Of a DNA stretch of 64,000 nucleotides, positions 57,602 to 64,000 are shown piece after piece. Numbering within the stretch: position 1 is the first letter of the stretch; the number at the start of each line of letters is the position of its first letter. The position numbers and the translations under genes were made by a program. This DNA is from Thermoprotei archaeon (GTDB taxonomy: Archaea > Thermoproteota > Thermoprotei > Thermoproteales > B15-G16), in contig QMRC01000001.1 in the NCBI GenBank assembly GCA_003649205.1, positions 192,001-256,000 of the forward strand, read 5' to 3'. Under the pieces are notes generated by a model that was not told where the DNA came from, searched no databases, and saw nothing but the letters and a program-made list of their open reading frames with translations.

Positions 57602-58435
57602 GTGAAGTTGATATTCATGGTCATGAAGCCAGTAATTACGTTGCTAACTGATTTCGGTACTAGAGATCCCTTTGTAGCTGAGATGAAAGCTGTAGTACTT
57701 AGCATATGTCCTGAAGCAACTATCGTAGACATATCCCACGATATTGAGAAGTTCAATGTAAGACAAGGTGCATTCGTACTAGCCTGTGCATATAGGTATT
57801 TCCCCAAGGGAACAATTCACGTAGTTGTTGTTGATCCTGGAGTTGGTACCGAGAGGAGACCTATCGTAATCAAGACGAGAAACTACTACTTCATTGGTCC
57901 TGACAACGGCGTTTTACTGCTAGCAGCTGATGAAGATGGTATTGAGGAGATACGTGAAATCAAGAACCCTAAGTACATGCTACCACAGATCTCAACTACC
58001 TTCCATGGTAGAGACATCTTCGCACCTGCAGCTGCCTACATAGCTCGTGGAGTACCGTTGAGAGATTTCGGTCCTGAATTAAGACCAAGTCAGTTAACTA
58101 GACCTAGATTCAGTACTGTGGAGGTACGTGGTAATGTAATTGAGGGAGAGGTACTGCACATCGATTCGTTTGGCAATGTAATAACGAACATTAAGGCTCA
58201 CCACCTAGATGAGATCGGTATTAGGTACGGAATGAGGCTACTCGTGAAGTTACCAGATCTAGGTATAGAGCTTGAAGTACCCTTTGTTAAGAGCTATGGA
58301 TACGTCGATGTAGGTAAGGAGCTAAGTCTCATCGATAGCCACGACTTCCTCGAGCTAGCGATTAACCAGGGGAGTTTCTGCTCAAGGTATGGAGTTAGGG
58401 TAGGTATGAGAGTAATAATCACGAAATGCGATTAG
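57602..58435 (+). CDS. SAM hydroxide adenosyltransferase (DUF62)
   Basis: LLTDFG, VVDPGVG, GPDNG, TFHGRDIFAP, DSFGN. Confidence 0.92.
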   Translation: MKLIFMVMKPVITLLTDFGTRDPFVAEMKAVVLSICPEATIVDISHDIEKFNVRQGAFVLACAYRYFPKGTIHVVVVDPGVGTERRPIVIKTRNYYFIGPDNGVLLLAADEDGIEEIREIKNPKYMLPQISTTFHGRDIFAPAAAYIARGVPLRDFGPELRPSQLTRPRFSTVEVRGNVIEGEVLHIDSFGNVITNIKAHHLDEIGIRYGMRLLVKLPDLGIELEVPFVKSYGYVDVGKELSLIDSHDFLELAINQGSFCSRYGVRVGMRVIITKCD

Positions 58436-59042
58436 TACTTAAGTCACGTAGAATGTACTTCTCCATTACACGACCATCGATAACCTCTACACCTTCCTTC
58501 CTAAGTAACTCAGCTTTCATCCACCATAGATCTCTAGAACCGAGGTAACCACCTACAAAACCACTACTCATGACAACTCGGTGACAAGGTATCACTAGAG
58601 GCCATGGATTTCTCATCAATACCCTAGCCACTACACGTGGTGATGTATTGAGTACCTTAGCCACCACACTATAGGTTGTGACCTTACCTGGAGGAATACT
58701 ATCAACAATAGTGAGAACTCTCCACTCGAAATTACTTAGTAGTTCACGGTAGATGAACTTCCGTACATAATGTACTAGGTCTATCCTACCCGGCTCAGCA
58801 TACAGTACCTGAAGTAACTTAATGACAGTGAAGATAGGAGTTACCTCACCCTCGTACTCCTCTCTACTCAGTACCGTAGCTCTCTTACTGACAAATTTAC
58901 AGAAACTACTCAGTATCGAAGTGAAGTAATTGTGGGGAACTGGAGGTATGTAGGCGAGTAGTTTTCGATAACTCCACCATACTGTAGCTGTTCTGTAACT
59001 ACCTAGATTGACCTCGATAACAAATATCTTACTCCACAGCAT
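58419..59042 (-). CDS. ogt: O6-alkylguanine-DNA alkyltransferase (MGMT)
   Basis: IPPGKVTTY, NPWPLVIPCHRVV, LLRKEG. Confidence 0.88.
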   Translation of the reverse strand: MLWSKIFVIEVNLGSYRTATVWWSYRKLLAYIPPVPHNYFTSILSSFCKFVSKRATVLSREEYEGEVTPIFTVIKLLQVLYAEPGRIDLVHYVRKFIYRELLSNFEWRVLTIVDSIPPGKVTTYSVVAKVLNTSPRVVARVLMRNPWPLVIPCHRVVMSSGFVGGYLGSRDLWWMKAELLRKEGVEVIDGRVMEKYILRDLSTNRIS

Positions 59043-59062
59043 AGCACCTAGGGGAAATATCT

Positions 59063-59674
59063 ATGGAGGTACGTGAAATACTTGTTGATGAGAAAGAGAG
59101 GTACTACCTAGCTATTGGAGGTATTGTCTTTGGTAGAGAATTAAGTGATTGTGATGTTGATTACGTACTAAACGTACTTAGAGAGTGTGAATCTAAGTTC
59201 AAAGATGCTGTCCCGGTGCTAGTTGACGCTAACTACGTAGTGTCTGTAAACCAGCTAGTAGTAGCTACTGTCCAAGCTGTTAGAGCTTGGTTGAGGGGTA
59301 AGGCGAGAGCTAAGAAGTTTGGTATTGAGTTACTTCTATGGATAGGTGCTAGGAAGCAGATTAGGGATGTAGTTGATGTACTTGGTGTTCACAGAGGATT
59401 GCTACGTGCATACCTTTTGTGTGTAAGCAGGAGTCTGGAGATTTGTAAGCTAGCTTGTGAAGCCGTATTGAGGAAGTTGAGTGCGGTAGTTGAGCTGAAT
59501 ATTGTTGAGCCGAGTAGGGTACTTAGTGAGGTCCTCAGTAATGGTGGGTCTATTGAGTTGTTGAGGAAGTGGTTTAATGTAGGTGATCGTGAACTAGCAG
59601 CAACCCTAGGTTCAGAAATCGAAAAACTTGAGAAGTGTATTCTCTCGAGAATTGCCCTACTAGCCTCTGAGTAG
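59063..59674 (+). CDS. cgi121: KEOPS complex subunit Cgi121
   Basis: QAVRAW..G..AK..IELLLWIGARKQI. Confidence 0.8.
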   Translation: MEVREILVDEKERYYLAIGGIVFGRELSDCDVDYVLNVLRECESKFKDAVPVLVDANYVVSVNQLVVATVQAVRAWLRGKARAKKFGIELLLWIGARKQIRDVVDVLGVHRGLLRAYLLCVSRSLEICKLACEAVLRKLSAVVELNIVEPSRVLSEVLSNGGSIELLRKWFNVGDRELAATLGSEIEKLEKCILSRIALLASE

Positions 59675-60208
59675 TTTTGCTTCTCTAAGGACTTTCATCA
59701 GTGAAAATACCTCCTCACTTGGTGAGAGTACGGAGATTCCTGTGGATTCGGGGAATATCTCTAAGTGTAGTACTTTCTCAGGATTTTCAAGATTTACCTT
59801 TCTCGGAATTTCCTTAGCTATGGAGTTTATCAGCTCCATTCTATTAATCGGTACACCTCTGTATCTAATCTCGATCTTGTAGGTCGCTGTTTCAGGGATT
59901 CCACGTATAGCAAGCTCGATAGCTGTTCTCTTTATTGTTTCGAAATCAGTACTTACAACAACTTCAATAGGTATTACCTTGAGTATGAAGCTAGGAATGA
60001 ACTTACTTGTGAGGACTAATTCACGTAACCTCCTCGTGAATACCTTTGGATCGGAGCTAACTAATGCAGTGAGAAGTCCAGGGAAGCCAGTTCTCCTAAC
60101 CGAGAGAACCTCAGTACCTTCACCTATTAACTTAGCTGCGACCTGAAGCTCATTTATACACTGTACTTCACGCCACCTACCAGTAGATACAACTAGGTTG
60201 TAGCTCAT
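59660..60208 (-). CDS. THUMP domain protein
   Basis: LKVIPI, TYKIEIRYR, KVNLENPEKV. Confidence 0.85.
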   Translation of the reverse strand: MSYNLVVSTGRWREVQCINELQVAAKLIGEGTEVLSVRRTGFPGLLTALVSSDPKVFTRRLRELVLTSKFIPSFILKVIPIEVVVSTDFETIKRTAIELAIRGIPETATYKIEIRYRGVPINRMELINSIAKEIPRKVNLENPEKVLHLEIFPESTGISVLSPSEEVFSLMKVLREAKLLRG

Positions 60209-60335
60209 TAGAACACCGTGAACAGCACCACAACATAGAATAAAAACCTTAACCCAGTAGTGTAGGCTTATTGCTAATGATACGAAGATGTAAAACTTTA
60301 AATTCCAGCAATAGATAGCATGCTTGGTGACGTCG

Positions 60336-60434
60336 ATGGTATTGTACGAGGAAGAATGGGAAGAGGAATGGGAGGAGGAAGAGTGGGAGGAAGAGGAATG
60401 GGAAGAAGAGGAGTGGGAAGAGGAAGAGTGGTAA
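60336..60434 (+). CDS. 32-aa acidic micropeptide MVLY(EEEW)2(EEEEW)4
   Basis: GGTGA RBS at 60326-60330, ATG 60336, TAA 60432-60434, TTTAAAT at 60297, T-tract downstream; mixed GAA/GAG codons. Confidence 0.75.
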   Translation: MVLYEEEWEEEWEEEEWEEEEWEEEEWEEEEW

Positions 60435-60545
60435 TTAGAAATTTTTCATAAATAATACAACACCTCTTTAAATAGTACCTCAATTCATACATTCCATGAT
60501 ACTTGAGCGAAATGTTTTTACGCACGTTGTAATCCTATCAAAAGG

Positions 60546-60857
60546 TTGGTAAGGGGTGTAAACTTGAAGTTCTGTCCAAAGTGTGGTAAGTTAATGATAC
60601 CACGTAGAGAAAAGGACAAGATCGTACTGATATGTCCTCAATGTAAGAACACTATTGAGGTCACTCACAGTGTAGAGGTCGGTTACAGAGTTAAGCACGA
60701 AGTTGAGGAAGAGAAGAGAACAAAAATGGCTATAGTTACCGGTACTGAGCGTAAGCTAACTGAGGAAGAGAGGCAGTTACTAGAGGACTACTACAAGGTA
60801 TTCCTAGAGACTTACATGGAAGCTGAAGAGACGTCAAGTGAGGAAGGTAGTGAGTGA
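60546..60857 (+). CDS. TFS/RpoM-like protein with N-terminal Zn ribbon only; start probably TTG 60564
   Basis: KFCPKCGKLMIP...LICPQC; helical acidic C-terminus without second ribbon. Confidence 0.7.
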   Translation: MVRGVNLKFCPKCGKLMIPRREKDKIVLICPQCKNTIEVTHSVEVGYRVKHEVEEEKRTKMAIVTGTERKLTEEERQLLEDYYKVFLETYMEAEETSSEEGSE

Positions 60858-60929
60858 AGGATAAACTTCAGCAATAGGTAGTTCTCGAACACCAAGTTAT
60901 ATAGTTCCTGTGAATCTGAATCAGCGAGT

Positions 60930-62753
60930 ATGGTTAGGGTAGCTGTCATTATAAAGGATAGGTGCAAGCCTAAGTACTGTAACAAGGAGTGTATTAGGTT
61001 TTGCCCACTAGCTAGGACAGGTAAGGAGGCAATTAAGTTCTCAGAAGAACTTGGTAGACCAGTGATATCTGAAGTACTATGTACTGGGTGCGGCATCTGT
61101 GTCAAGAAGTGTCCATTCAAGGCAATTTACATCGTGAATCTACCTGAAGAACTTGAAGAAGAGTGTGTTCATAGGTATGGACCTAGCGGATTTAAGCTCT
61201 ACAGACTACCAATTGTTAAGGAGGGTAAGGTACTTGGTCTAATTGGTCCTAATGCAATTGGAAAGACTACCGTCCTGAAGATACTTGCTGGTGAACTCAA
61301 GCCTAATCTAGGTTATGTAGATAGGGAACCCTCTTGGAGTGAAATAATTAAGCATTTTCGAGGTACTGAGTTGCAGATCTACTTCGAGAAGTTATCGAGA
61401 AGGGAATTGAAGGTAGTTCATAAACCTCAATTCATCGATGCTATTCCACGTGTTGTTAAGGGTAAGGTTCGTGATATCCTGAGTAGAGTAGCTGAGAGGA
61501 ATAGGTTGAGGGAGGTTATTGAGCTACTACACATGCAACATATCTTAGATAAGGACGTTAGTGTGCTTAGTGGTGGTGAACTACAGAAGTTAGCCATTGC
61601 AGCTGCTTACCTACGTGATGGAGATGTATATCTTTTCGATGAACCTTCATCACATCTTGACGTCCGTGAGAGGTTGAGAGCAGCTAAGTTGATTAGGAGG
61701 TTAGCGAGTGAAGGTAAGACCGTTGTCGTTGTTGAGCACGATCTAGCCGTGCTCGACTACGTATCTGACTACGTATGCGTTCTCTACGGTGCTCCAGGTG
61801 CATACGGTATAGTATCACTACCAAGAGGCGTTCGTGTTGGTATCAATGAGTACCTTGATGGCTTCCTAACAGCTGAGAACATGAGGATTAGACCAGAGCC
61901 GATTAGATTTAGATTGAGACCACCAGAGAGACAGAAGAGTAAGGAGAGGATATTGCTTAGCTGGTCTAGAATTGTCAAGAAGTTCCCTGGCTTCACTCTA
62001 GAGGTTGAGCCCGGTGAAGTCTATAGGGGTGAGGTAGTGGGTATCCTAGGACCGAACGGTATAGGTAAGACAACATTCGTGAAGATACTAGCTAACGTAC
62101 TCGAACCAGATGAGGGAGTAGTGGTACCGTACACAGAGAAGGTTAGGGTGAGCTACAAGCCACAGTACATAAAGCCAACAACAAGTGCTATTGTTGAGGA
62201 GGTATTCGCTAAGATAGACCCTAACTACAGGGATAAGTGGGTTTGGCATGAATTAGCTGAACCACTACAACTCACACACCTACTAAAAAGAGATATCATG
62301 GAGCTCAGTGGTGGTGAGCTTCAGAGAGTGGCTATCGCAGCTTGTCTCCTACGTGATGCCGAGATATACCTACTTGATGAGCCACTTGCCTACCTAGATA
62401 TTGAGCAGAGATTTGCTGTAGCTAAGGTACTTAGGAGGATTGCTGAGGAGAGAGAAGTTACAGTATTCGTAGTCGAGCACGATGTCATAATGCAGGACTT
62501 CATAGCTGATGCCATCATGGTCTTTAGCGGAGAACCAGGTGTACACGGTATAGCACATGCACCTGTAGGGCTGAGAGAGGGAATGAACATGTTCCTACGT
62601 GAGCTAGATGTTACTTTCAGACGTGACTTACACACTGGGAGGCCCAGGATAAACAAGGAAGGTTCATGGCTAGATAGGTACCAAAAGGAGGTACTGAAGG
62701 AATACTACTACATCCCTGAGAAACCTGAAGAGGAAAGAGAAGAGGAAGAGTAG
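60930..62753 (+). CDS. rli: Ribosome recycling ATPase ABCE1/RLI
   Basis: N-terminal 2x[4Fe-4S] Cys motifs, two ABC NBDs with LSGGELQ, RPRINK. Confidence 0.97.
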   Translation: MVRVAVIIKDRCKPKYCNKECIRFCPLARTGKEAIKFSEELGRPVISEVLCTGCGICVKKCPFKAIYIVNLPEELEEECVHRYGPSGFKLYRLPIVKEGKVLGLIGPNAIGKTTVLKILAGELKPNLGYVDREPSWSEIIKHFRGTELQIYFEKLSRRELKVVHKPQFIDAIPRVVKGKVRDILSRVAERNRLREVIELLHMQHILDKDVSVLSGGELQKLAIAAAYLRDGDVYLFDEPSSHLDVRERLRAAKLIRRLASEGKTVVVVEHDLAVLDYVSDYVCVLYGAPGAYGIVSLPRGVRVGINEYLDGFLTAENMRIRPEPIRFRLRPPERQKSKERILLSWSRIVKKFPGFTLEVEPGEVYRGEVVGILGPNGIGKTTFVKILANVLEPDEGVVVPYTEKVRVSYKPQYIKPTTSAIVEEVFAKIDPNYRDKWVWHELAEPLQLTHLLKRDIMELSGGELQRVAIAACLLRDAEIYLLDEPLAYLDIEQRFAVAKVLRRIAEEREVTVFVVEHDVIMQDFIADAIMVFSGEPGVHGIAHAPVGLREGMNMFLRELDVTFRRDLHTGRPRINKEGSWLDRYQKEVLKEYYYIPEKPEEEREEEE

Positions 62754-62868
62754 CAAGGTAAGGGTACCTAGCACTCAATAGGTATTAAATGAATTTGGTA
62801 CACATCAATATGCAAAAGCTTTTAAGAAAGTAAGGTACGTGCTAGAACAGAAACGAGGTGACTACTAA

Positions 62869-63999
62869 ATGCCAAGAAAGATAACAATTTCTCTAATTAA
62901 AGCTGACATAGGCTCAATACCAGGTCACGTCGTTGTCCACCCCAAACAACTAGAAGTTGCTAAGGAGAAAATGGAGGAAGCAAAGAAGAATGGACTCATA
63001 ATTGACTACTTTGTATTCAACTTCGGAGATGACCTAGCACTACTCATGACACATGAATACGGTGAAAACAACCCCAAGATACATGAGCTAGCTTGGACGA
63101 CATTTAAGGAGATAACCGAGAAGGTTTCGAAGAAACTAAAACTATACGCAGCTGGACAAGACCTACTAGTTGAGGCGTTTTCAGGAAATATCAGAGGAAT
63201 GGGACCACAGGTAGCAGAGATGGAGATTGAGGAGAGACCAAGTGAACCACTTGTAGTCTTCGGTGCAGACAAGACAGAACCAGGCGCATTTAACCTACCA
63301 CTATTCAGAATCTTTGCAGACCCATTCAATACAGCAGGACTAATAATCGATCCAAAGATGCACGATGGCTTCATATTCAGAGTACTAGACCTAATTGAAG
63401 GTCAGTACGTAGAGCTTAGATGTCCAGAGGAAATGTACGACCTACTAGCACTTATCGGTACACCAGGTAGGTACGTCATTGAGAGAGTATTCAGAAAGGA
63501 TGGGCTACCAGCAGCAGTCTGTAGCGTAACAAAGCTAAACCTCATAGCAGGTAGGTACGTAGGTAAGGACGATCCAGTATGCATGATCAGAGCACAGCAC
63601 GGACTACCAGCAGTTGGTGAGATACTAGAAGCATTTGCTTTCCCGCACCTAGTAGCGGGATGGATGAGAGGTAGTCACCACGGACCACTAATGCCAATGA
63701 AGATGATAAAGATCGACTGGGAGAACAAGATAGGTTACGGACCAAAGATGACAAGGTTCGACGGGCCACCAAAGATTGTAGCACTAGGATTCCAGCTACA
63801 TGACGGTTACCTAGAGGGACCAATAGACCTATTCGATGACCCAGCATTCGACTACACAAGACAGGTAGCAGCATACATAGCAGACTACATCAGGAGACAC
63901 GGACCATTCATGCCACATAGACTAGGACCAGAGGAGATGGAGTATACAACACTACCACAGGTACTAGAGAAGCTAAAGTCCAGATTTAAGAGGATGTAG
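62869..63999 (+). CDS. fbp: Fructose-1,6-bisphosphate aldolase/phosphatase (class V)
   Basis: KADIGSIPGH, YAAGQDL, DPFNTAGL, YVGKDDP, GWMRGSH, EMEYTTLP. Confidence 0.96.
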   Translation: MPRKITISLIKADIGSIPGHVVVHPKQLEVAKEKMEEAKKNGLIIDYFVFNFGDDLALLMTHEYGENNPKIHELAWTTFKEITEKVSKKLKLYAAGQDLLVEAFSGNIRGMGPQVAEMEIEERPSEPLVVFGADKTEPGAFNLPLFRIFADPFNTAGLIIDPKMHDGFIFRVLDLIEGQYVELRCPEEMYDLLALIGTPGRYVIERVFRKDGLPAAVCSVTKLNLIAGRYVGKDDPVCMIRAQHGLPAVGEILEAFAFPHLVAGWMRGSHHGPLMPMKMIKIDWENKIGYGPKMTRFDGPPKIVALGFQLHDGYLEGPIDLFDDPAFDYTRQVAAYIADYIRRHGPFMPHRLGPEEMEYTTLPQVLEKLKSRFKRM

Positions 64000-64000
64000 G

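Follow-up and report, generated by a model that had tools for sequence, protein, structure and literature searches.

DSS1/Sem1 is a very small, disordered and highly acidic eukaryotic protein of 70-90 amino acids (aa), which uses a few conserved Trp and Phe residues as anchors on the basic surfaces of its larger partners (the proteasome lid, BRCA2 and TREX-2) and can mimic single-stranded DNA. Acidic C-terminal tails with a terminal Phe are found in bacterial SSB and in T7 gp2.5, and LysW carries an acidic EDWGE end. In archaea, the C-terminal tail of the ribosomal stalk protein aP1, whose tip is rich in Leu, Phe and Gly, was reported to bind both ABCE1 and translational GTPases. Archaea and eukaryotes cannot do without ABCE1 itself, and most of the structural work on ribosome splitting takes the archaeal form as its model. 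We report here on a micro-open reading frame (micro-ORF) in a stretch of 64,000 nucleotides (nt) of a Thermoprotei archaeon (contig QMRC01000001.1, positions 192,001 to 256,000; hereafter the window), which encodes the 32-aa peptide MVLYEEEWEEEWEEEEWEEEEWEEEEWEEEEW. This micro-ORF is, close to certainly, a real, conserved, protein-coding and stand-alone gene, and it belongs to a previously undescribed, phylum-wide family of putative microproteins, of the small acidic aromatic docking protein kind. Many heat-loving and sediment archaea keep it as a neighbour of ABCE1, and in the class to which the window belongs a small zinc-ribbon gene separates the two.

Like DSS1/Sem1, the encoded peptides are small, acidic, probably disordered and equipped with Trp/Phe anchors, but they bear no sequence relationship to it (the PF05160 profile was unmatched in 5 peptides). 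They are also shorter, far richer in Glu and aromatic-ended, and the partners of DSS1 are absent here. The tails of SSB, gp2.5 and LysW resemble the peptides by their acidity, by an aromatic residue at or near the free C-terminus and by a presumed docking on basic pockets, whereas they belong to folded proteins, and no DNA-metabolism or lysine-biosynthesis genes are suggested near the micro-ORF. Two public loci (L213 and L257, Nitrososphaerota records) fuse such a tail to a zinc ribbon, in 83-aa ORFs where a LysW-like CPECGA ribbon is followed by EEEEWEEEEEEEWDEWEEEEW. A Hadarchaeota record (L180) holds a further fused form, a 94-aa Cys-rich zinc-finger ORF with the C-terminal sequence ...EEDYWGWEEEEW. 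None of these three fused forms adjoins ABCE1, and they may hint at the type of domain that the free peptide replaces or partners. The aP1 stalk tail shares with the peptides a Glu-rich stretch, a short hydrophobic tip and a partner in the same pathway; on the contrary, its tip motif is absent from them, no match to the P1/L12 family was obtained, and it is the tail of a 100-aa ribosomal protein rather than a free peptide.

Databases and literature gave little trace of the family. Pfam returned 0 families for 5 of 5 peptides (that of the window at E up to 0.01, four relatives at E up to 5), and NCBIfam no family for the peptides searched. Among 1.84 billion representatives, a profile search at E up to 0.001 recovered no more than 2 proteins (of 34 and 48 aa, each a member of the family) and no longer, fused form, the 31-position profile being too weak to exclude more. 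The ESM Atlas contains the exact sequence of the window, with matches that scored under 0.8 only and are all without names. The claim that such an ORF is too short for standard gene callers was therefore only partly right, as the two relatives and the window's own peptide are already present in protein collections. The literature search found no description of the family; supplementary tables of transcript starts or small ORFs (Sulfolobus, Pyrobaculum) may list the transcript, and some public records may carry the micro-ORF as a 'hypothetical protein'.

The case for a coding gene is carried by the way in which the sequence varies among relatives. In 13 genomes of the genera g3 and g6, the 24 core codons present 0/0/19 variable columns at first, second and third codon positions, respectively, and the core EEEWEEEEELWEEFEEEWEEEEEW is identical throughout, bar one conservative E>D change. 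Similarly, the last 17 codons in 13 genomes of g4 present 1/0/15 variable columns, all of them synonymous. Over 99 nt, the micro-ORF of the window differs from that of a relative of the same genus by 5 synonymous third-position GAA/GAG changes and 1 Tyr>His replacement. Protein-level selection had been proposed from the alternation of GAA and GAG across the repeats of the window alone, and the relatives agree with it, the positions of GAA and GAG not being conserved among them. This pattern of variation excludes other frames, an antisense ORF and an RNA-level function; two candidate products, an antisense 75-aa Pro/Leu-rich ORF and the +2 Gly/Arg frame, were ruled out by this codon-position pattern. 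A related strain from a public metagenome run, in which one contig of 1,197 nt spans the stretch, shows only substitutions inside the ORF; the deletions of 1 and 4 nt and the insertion of 7 nt that it carries are confined to the intergenic DNA on either side. The sole indel placed inside the ORF in public runs, on other contigs, is of 3 nt. These comparisons show strong purifying selection on the predicted peptide.

A re-reading of the window located the TATA element, GGTGA, ATG, TAA and TTTTT where the original prediction had placed them, and translation verified its count of 22 Glu and 6 Trp in 32 aa. At the DNA level, the micro-ORF is a repeat with a 15-nt period, 5.8 copies and 79% matches (Tandem Repeats Finder), and its mRNA is rich in GGAGG words resembling Shine-Dalgarno (SD) sequences. 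The degenerate word for EEWEEE is found 5 times in the window, while 100 shuffles of the window give an expectation of 0.00, so that a chance origin of the repeat can be dismissed. Moreover, the six frames of the 2,066,741-bp genome encode no other ([ED]2-6[WFY])x3 stretch than the micro-ORF. Rfam 15 gave 0 matches at E up to 1 over positions 58000-64000 of the window, and the predicted RNA fold of the micro-ORF (minimum free energy -5.9 kcal/mol, z = 0.19) is no more stable than that of shuffles. A scan for sigma-70 promoters and hairpin terminators, which is built for non-archaeal signals, returned 0 sites.

The family extends throughout the phylum. A pattern search of Thermoproteota genomes, which had been suggested as a check and was run with the EEWEEE word, found matches in 55 of the 62 genomes searched for the order, in 98 of the 120 for the class and in 251 out of a phylum-wide sample of 401, nearly always at a single locus per genome. 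As a control, the pattern was reversed, and it then matched at most 2 times per strand and in most cases not at all. These counts are lower bounds, as the word misses variants with F and D. Indeed, 0 of 9 genomes of family f4 were positive by this word, yet a Phe version, MAEEEELEEFEEFEEFEELEEFEEF, is present in 4 of 5 genomes examined; likewise, only 4 of 18 genomes of family f32 were positive, yet EEDW versions occur in 4 of 5 examined. A second scan, for WEEEEW followed by a stop in one genome per prokaryotic species, returned at least 119 stretches. Almost all of the 80 titles listed among them are archaeal (Bathyarchaeia, Desulfurococcaceae, Ignisphaera, Pyrodictium, Hyperthermus, Thermogladius, metagenome-assembled genomes (MAGs) of Sulfolobales and a few Nitrososphaerota). 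Five or six of the 80 are otherwise labelled, namely three Nanoarchaeia/Nanopusillus, a Hadarchaeota, a Krumholzibacteriaceae MAG and a Lactobacillus record, the latter being a chance-like frame of 8 aa. Outside the phylum, the region upstream of ABCE1 was negative in the three genomes checked (Hadarchaeota, Nanopusillus and Nitrososphaerota), Euryarchaeal and Asgard lineages being outside the scope of the search. In four hydrothermal-vent and sediment metagenome runs (X2-X5), contigs of many other organisms pile up on the Glu/Trp-coding part of the micro-ORF (positions 60348-60432 of the window) with a summed depth of up to 158, compared to 2-50 in the flanks, and their loose ends read ...GAATGGTAA or ...GAGTTTTAA followed by T-runs. 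This pile-up with varied ends indicates many co-occurring archaea, each with its own version of the peptide.

The properties of the family were drawn from 82 distinct peptides gathered without bias on the C-terminus. Their median length is 30 aa (range 18-64), and they consist of 65% Glu/Asp, with a median of five Trp/Phe/Tyr and a median of zero Lys/Arg/His. Most begin with Met and one to four hydrophobic residues; the Glu runs start between residues 2 and 8 in the relatives, the window's own run starting at residue 5, and the aromatic residues follow every 3-8 residues. The last residue is W in 53 peptides, L in 11, F in 8, E in 7, M in 2 and Y in 1, i.e., 75 of 82 end in W, L, F, M or Y. 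The regular (EEEEW)n repeat of the window is a derived variant, the common form of the family being irregular (e.g., ...EEEEWEEEEELWEEFEEEWEEEEEW); a regular (EEEEW)n-like variant is also found in a distant family (L140).

The position of the micro-gene ahead of ABCE1 is the key functional clue. It had been placed upstream of a TFS-like gene and ABCE1 in the window, and this order proved to be conserved across the phylum. In at least 76 of the 119 listed WEEEEW-stop loci, the N-terminus of ABCE1 is encoded 49-267 nt downstream on the same strand, a minimum given that the flanks of these loci extend over 400 nt only. Beyond the order, 54 loci were taken from further families of the class and the phylum; the next same-strand gene is ABCE1 in 22 of them, the zinc-ribbon gene in 10 and neither in 22. 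The f4 genomes keep the order of the window (peptide, zinc ribbon, ABCE1), and an anchor search of 61 related genomes found an acidic, aromatic micro-ORF directly upstream of the zinc-ribbon gene in 8 of 30 loci. In f32, the orthologue lies directly upstream of ABCE1 in 4 of 5 genomes, with a gap of 46-54 nt and an SD sequence ahead of ABCE1; the smallest gap, in one genome, is 8 nt from the stop of the peptide to the start of ABCE1. Within the class, a distance of no more than about 2 kb separates the peptide gene from ABCE1 in 20 genomes, and the two are at least 89 kb apart in 20 of 20 single-contig genomes holding both. In all six loci of g4, g7, g2 and one g8 genome, the next gene is convergent. 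The purifying selection on the peptide is undiminished in the lineages where its gene has left ABCE1.

The signals around the micro-gene are those of an independent unit. In the orthologues inspected, an element made of a B recognition element (BRE) and a TATA box, with a consensus of about GGTAATGCTTTTAAA / TTTATAAATA, stands 25-45 nt ahead of the start codon, and the promoter region of the window is identical at 97 of 100 positions in the same-genus relative. The position of the TATA box would put GGTGA at the extreme 5' end of the transcript; in the f32 orthologues upstream of ABCE1, GGTG(A) stands 5-6 nt ahead of a TTG start. Within 40 nt past the stop, 114 of the 198 distinct loci have a run of at least five T; of 990 windows placed at random in these loci, 103 have one. 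Where ABCE1 is the next gene, TATA-like hexamers, counted in 5-nt bins, peak 45-41 nt before the start of ABCE1, with 59 matches among 64 loci and 15 in the next bin, which indicates that ABCE1 has its own promoter. In the window, the second TATA-like box, TTTAAATA, is probably the promoter of the downstream zinc-ribbon gene, and it is present too in the same-genus relative. Given these separate TATA and T-run signals, the micro-gene looks like a monocistronic unit with its own promoter. The proposal of an independently expressed, stand-alone gene is thus borne out by promoter- and terminator-like signals, read from sequence alone.

Our best reading, to which we give a probability of about 0.45, is that of a disordered polyanionic microprotein that docks on a basic surface in the ribosome-recycling module of ABCE1. 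The peptide most likely acts in trans, as it is kept unchanged away from ABCE1 and facing a convergent gene. Indeed, a leader acting in cis would not be retained where no gene follows for it to regulate, and the promoter of ABCE1 is separate; both points suggest a trans-acting microprotein. Given the conserved neighbourhood, the peptide most likely works in the ABCE1 module, and this gene order points to ABCE1 and translation rather than to chromatin, which had also been proposed. The peptide would be a disordered polyanion resembling nucleic acid, in which the Glu runs would bind a basic, RNA-binding surface while the Trp/Phe side chains and the C-terminal aromatic carboxylate would supply specificity. 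Its target would most likely belong to the ABCE1 module for recycling and the hand-over to initiation, the candidates being the basic iron-sulfur (Fe-S) domain of ABCE1, the place where ABCE1 sits on the small subunit, and the zinc-ribbon protein; the peptide would thereby modulate binding or release. The Fe-S domain of ABCE1 is reported to contact helix 44 of the ribosomal RNA after subunit splitting (PMC12673854). By hand count, this domain in the window (residues 1-77) is clearly basic, with 13 Lys/Arg versus 10 Asp/Glu, or 13 versus 6 ahead of the acidic LPEELEE linker. A complex prediction of ABCE1 (32 rows) with the peptide (24 rows), run without controls, scored 0.00 twice with a predicted local distance difference test (pLDDT) value below 50 for the partner, and speaks neither for nor against such docking.

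Several observations weigh against the docking of the peptide on the ABCE1 module. Both the product of the micro-gene and its interaction with ABCE1 are predicted from sequence and gene order alone, and genes that stay adjacent but have promoters of their own need not work together. In the class to which the window belongs, the link to ABCE1 is interrupted in the majority of genomes. The gene of the S-adenosylmethionine (AdoMet) decarboxylase is instead the next one on the same strand in g3 and g6, in 3 of 3 loci scanned, a fourth being without assignment. The 1.5 kb upstream of ABCE1 contained no micro-ORF in 5 of 5 genomes of f26, in 3 of 3 of f16, in 1 of 1 of f43 and in three genomes from other lineages. 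The aromatic residues differ widely by lineage in number and spacing, with a period of 5 in the window and of 3-4-4 in g4 and g8; such variation is unusual if the peptide fits one defined pocket. Finally, frame-breaking changes in relatives, which the original prediction had named as counting against a gene, are uncommon, with a single frame-broken copy (L043, contig C3 of genome G061, g5), where ...EEEFESEW is followed by GGGILIL.... This genome is 47% complete and its ABCE1 match is likewise split in two; the break may be an assembly error or a decaying locus.

Among other explanations, the first to be weighed, although we hold it unlikely, is the one of the original prediction, namely a generic polyanion unrelated to ABCE1. 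The peptide would then be a free acidic tail that mimics nucleic acid and serves as a chaperone or competitor for ribosomal, chromatin or single-strand binding proteins, or as a buffer of Mg2+ or polyamines. Its composition fits such roles, being 65% acidic with no basic residues and with regular aromatics. Furthermore, composition rather than positions is conserved across lineages, the gene persists far from ABCE1 and, in g3 and g6, it is found upstream of a polyamine-synthesis gene, that of AdoMet decarboxylase. However, a generic polyanion leaves unexplained the adjacency to ABCE1 or the zinc ribbon, seen in at least 76 of the 119 listed loci and in 32 of the 54 loci outside the order, across several classes. 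The residue-by-residue invariance within genera is also tighter than a simple charge buffer needs.

A more specific role as a dedicated ABCE1 cofactor, whose free C-terminal Glu-Trp would be read by an Fe-S delivery system or by the small ribosomal subunit, is less probable still. In its Fe-S variant, this cofactor would be the prokaryotic counterpart, as a forerunner or an analogue, of the C-terminal tryptophan code (Lto1 and targeting complex recognition, TCR) with which eukaryotes mature Rli1/ABCE1. In its small-subunit variant, the polyanion would mimic RNA and push the Fe-S domain of ABCE1 off helix 44, and this displacement would time the hand-over from ribosome recycling to initiation.

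We consider it improbable that the micro-ORF encodes a cis-acting leader peptide through which ABCE1 autoregulates, by intrinsic ribosome destabilisation or by slow termination at the Trp-stop, either of which would set the read-through of the T-run or re-initiation. Translation factors that autoregulate through their own activity are known, e.g., prfB and infC. The layout of promoter, short ORF, T-run and same-strand gene would suit such a leader, and so would the very short gaps of some genomes (8 nt; 46-54 nt in f32). MgtL-type leaders likewise combine acidic residues almost at the start, a terminator-like element and a same-strand gene. Consecutive N-terminal acidic residues are the described trigger of intrinsic ribosome destabilisation (PMC12673854), and the predicted peptide has consecutive acidic residues near its N-terminus, the Glu starting at residue 5 in the window. 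Unlike the MgtL type, however, the micro-gene is kept without a same-strand follower, being under full purifying selection with a convergent next gene (13 genomes of g4, as well as g7, g2 and a g8 genome) and retained with ABCE1 at least 89 kb away. Moreover, the downstream promoter is separate, as seen in the TATA peak of ABCE1 and in the second TATA-like box at 60467 in the window, and a leader would leave the conservation of the Trp/Phe pattern and of the C-terminal aromatic unexplained. A leader or attenuator with the regulated gene on the same transcript is thus not supported, although its position would fit in at least 76 of the 119 listed loci, in view of the separate TATA, the convergent neighbours and the distance to ABCE1 in the single-contig genomes. 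A tryptophan-sensing leader was discarded too, no trp genes being found among the neighbours.

A slightly smaller chance is left to a maturation adaptor for the Fe-S clusters of ABCE1, in which the C-terminal Glu-Trp would be recognised by a cluster-delivery machinery while the acidic body would hold the basic apo Fe-S domain; it would be the archaeal analogue of the C-terminal tryptophan of eukaryotic Lto1. No targeting complex of cytosolic iron-sulfur assembly (CIA), Cia1-Cia2-Met18 in eukaryotes, is known in archaea. Eukaryotic Rli1/ABCE1 needs the Yae1-Lto1 adaptor, in which the terminal Trp of Lto1 is critical, and a C-terminal [LIM]-[DES]-[WF]-COO- tripeptide recruits the CIA targeting complex (PMC10245660, PMC6857552). 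The peptides resemble this TCR signal in part, by an acidic-then-aromatic free C-terminus and by a tie, here of gene order only, to the same client: 62 of 82 distinct peptides have W, F or Y at position -1, and the window, like the majority of the relatives listed, has Glu at position -2, an acidic residue mostly preceding the aromatic one in the listed peptides. In one g7 locus, a SufB/D gene is the upstream same-strand neighbour of the micro-ORF, which has also been counted in favour. On the contrary, position -3 is Glu in the window and not Leu, Ile or Met, the peptide is without Gly and so without the deca-GX3 domain, and some members end in L or E. In addition, PMC10245660 describes the tripeptide as missing from the archaeal orthologues of client proteins.

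That the micro-ORF is not a gene at all, i.e., a purine-rich (GAR)n/TGG tandem repeat maintained by slippage, a non-coding RNA or an antisense product, has an almost negligible probability, since, in spite of the 15-nt tandem period with 79% matches and the abundance of SD-like GGAGG words, 19 of 19 variable columns at third positions fit this frame only, the start codon, stop codon and promoter are conserved across the phylum, and neither RNA folding (z = 0.19), nor Rfam (empty), nor the GAA/GAG positions, which are not conserved, indicate an RNA.

A phylum-wide microprotein beside ABCE1 would be an obvious candidate for an accessory factor or regulator. Were it a dedicated ABCE1 cofactor, a protein of about 30 aa overlooked in every model crenarchaeon would be a missing part of an essential and universal step of translation; were it only a generic polyanion, it would still be a new and widespread archaeal counterpart of DSS1-like acidic microproteins. 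The family also illustrates that a repeat with the look of low complexity can be a gene under saturating purifying selection, of a type often missed or masked by routine annotation. Presumably, f32 corresponds to genetically tractable organisms of the Sulfolobus type; if so, the question would be open to bench test at once, the orthologues lying directly upstream of ABCE1 in 4 of 5 of its genomes.

The features of the locus are collected in Table 1. The protein encoded between the micro-ORF and ABCE1 corresponds to the N-terminal ribbon of Rpb9/TFS only, its C-terminal half being acidic, helix-like and without Cys pairs. Its matches in the PDB are Rpb9 N-ribbons only (E 0.013), and it remains below the cut-offs of the TFS models (TIGR01384, 30.4 vs 64.75 bits; TFS4 model, 21.5 vs 120 bits). 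An assignment to transcription factor S or Rpb9 was rejected on account of these scores and of the lacking C-terminal TFIIS-type catalytic ribbon. The C-terminal acidic helix (...LLENLYE/LLENLQE...) is kept throughout the ABCE1-linked zinc-ribbon family (window, L012, L014 and L017-L030). In the zinc-ribbon proteins of g3 and g6, Asp replaces the second Cys of the first CxxC (CPKDG/CPRDG), which suggests that metal binding may differ or be lost.

Table 1. Genes and putative expression signals around the micro-ORF (window coordinates)
Feature	Position	Strand	Remarks
Ogt-type methyltransferase DNA-binding domain gene	58419..59042	-	N-terminal extension of about 100 aa without family match
Cgi121 (KEOPS) gene	59063..59674	+	3' end overlaps end of THUMP gene by 15 nt
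Stand-alone THUMP-domain protein	59660..60208	-	Pfam THUMP, E 4.4e-09; divergent from micro-gene
BRE/TATA-like promoter element of micro-gene, GTAAAAC TTTAAAT	60290..60303	+	TTTAAAT at 60297-60303
Shine-Dalgarno-like GGTGA	60326..60330	+	5 nt 5' of ATG
Micro-ORF	60336..60434	+	32 codons + TAA; MVLY(EEEW)2(EEEEW)4
T5 run, archaeal terminator-like	60442..60446	+	8 nt past stop of micro-ORF
Second TATA-like box, TTTAAATA	60467..60474	+	Present too in same-genus relative
Small zinc-ribbon protein, 97 aa	60564..60857	+	Pfam Zn_ribbon_RPB9, E 4.1e-08, residues 2-30
ABCE1, RNase L inhibitor type ribosome-recycling ATPase, two 4Fe-4S sites	60930..62753	+	Pfam Fer4_RLI, Fer4, 2x ABC_tran

On the other side of the micro-gene, the THUMP gene holds the same divergent or upstream position in g4, g8, f5 and f33 and is located elsewhere in g3, g6, g2 and g7. 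It was therefore not retained as a conserved partner, although it adjoins the micro-ORF in g1 as well as in g4, g8, f5 and f33. The divergent ORF of 190-200 aa found in g3 and g6 has no similarity to the THUMP protein (E 0.063) and no Pfam family. In these lineages (L061-L073), the AdoMet decarboxylase gene and a SIS-domain gene lie on the same strand about 100-265 nt downstream of the micro-ORF, and the other flank is formed by a conserved ORF of 187-208 aa without Pfam or NCBIfam family.

The ABCE1 matches of several relatives cross one in-frame stop (e.g., TAG in G092 and G084, TAA in G026, TGA in G077 and G007); these stops may be alignment overhangs at gene ends or real interruptions. A separate family was also encountered in the same class of archaea (L093, L098, L108 and L109), with proteins of 409-424 aa that end in ...IQEEEWEEE(E)-stop; by eye, the domain before this tail looked like a TrkA-C/RCK-type domain.

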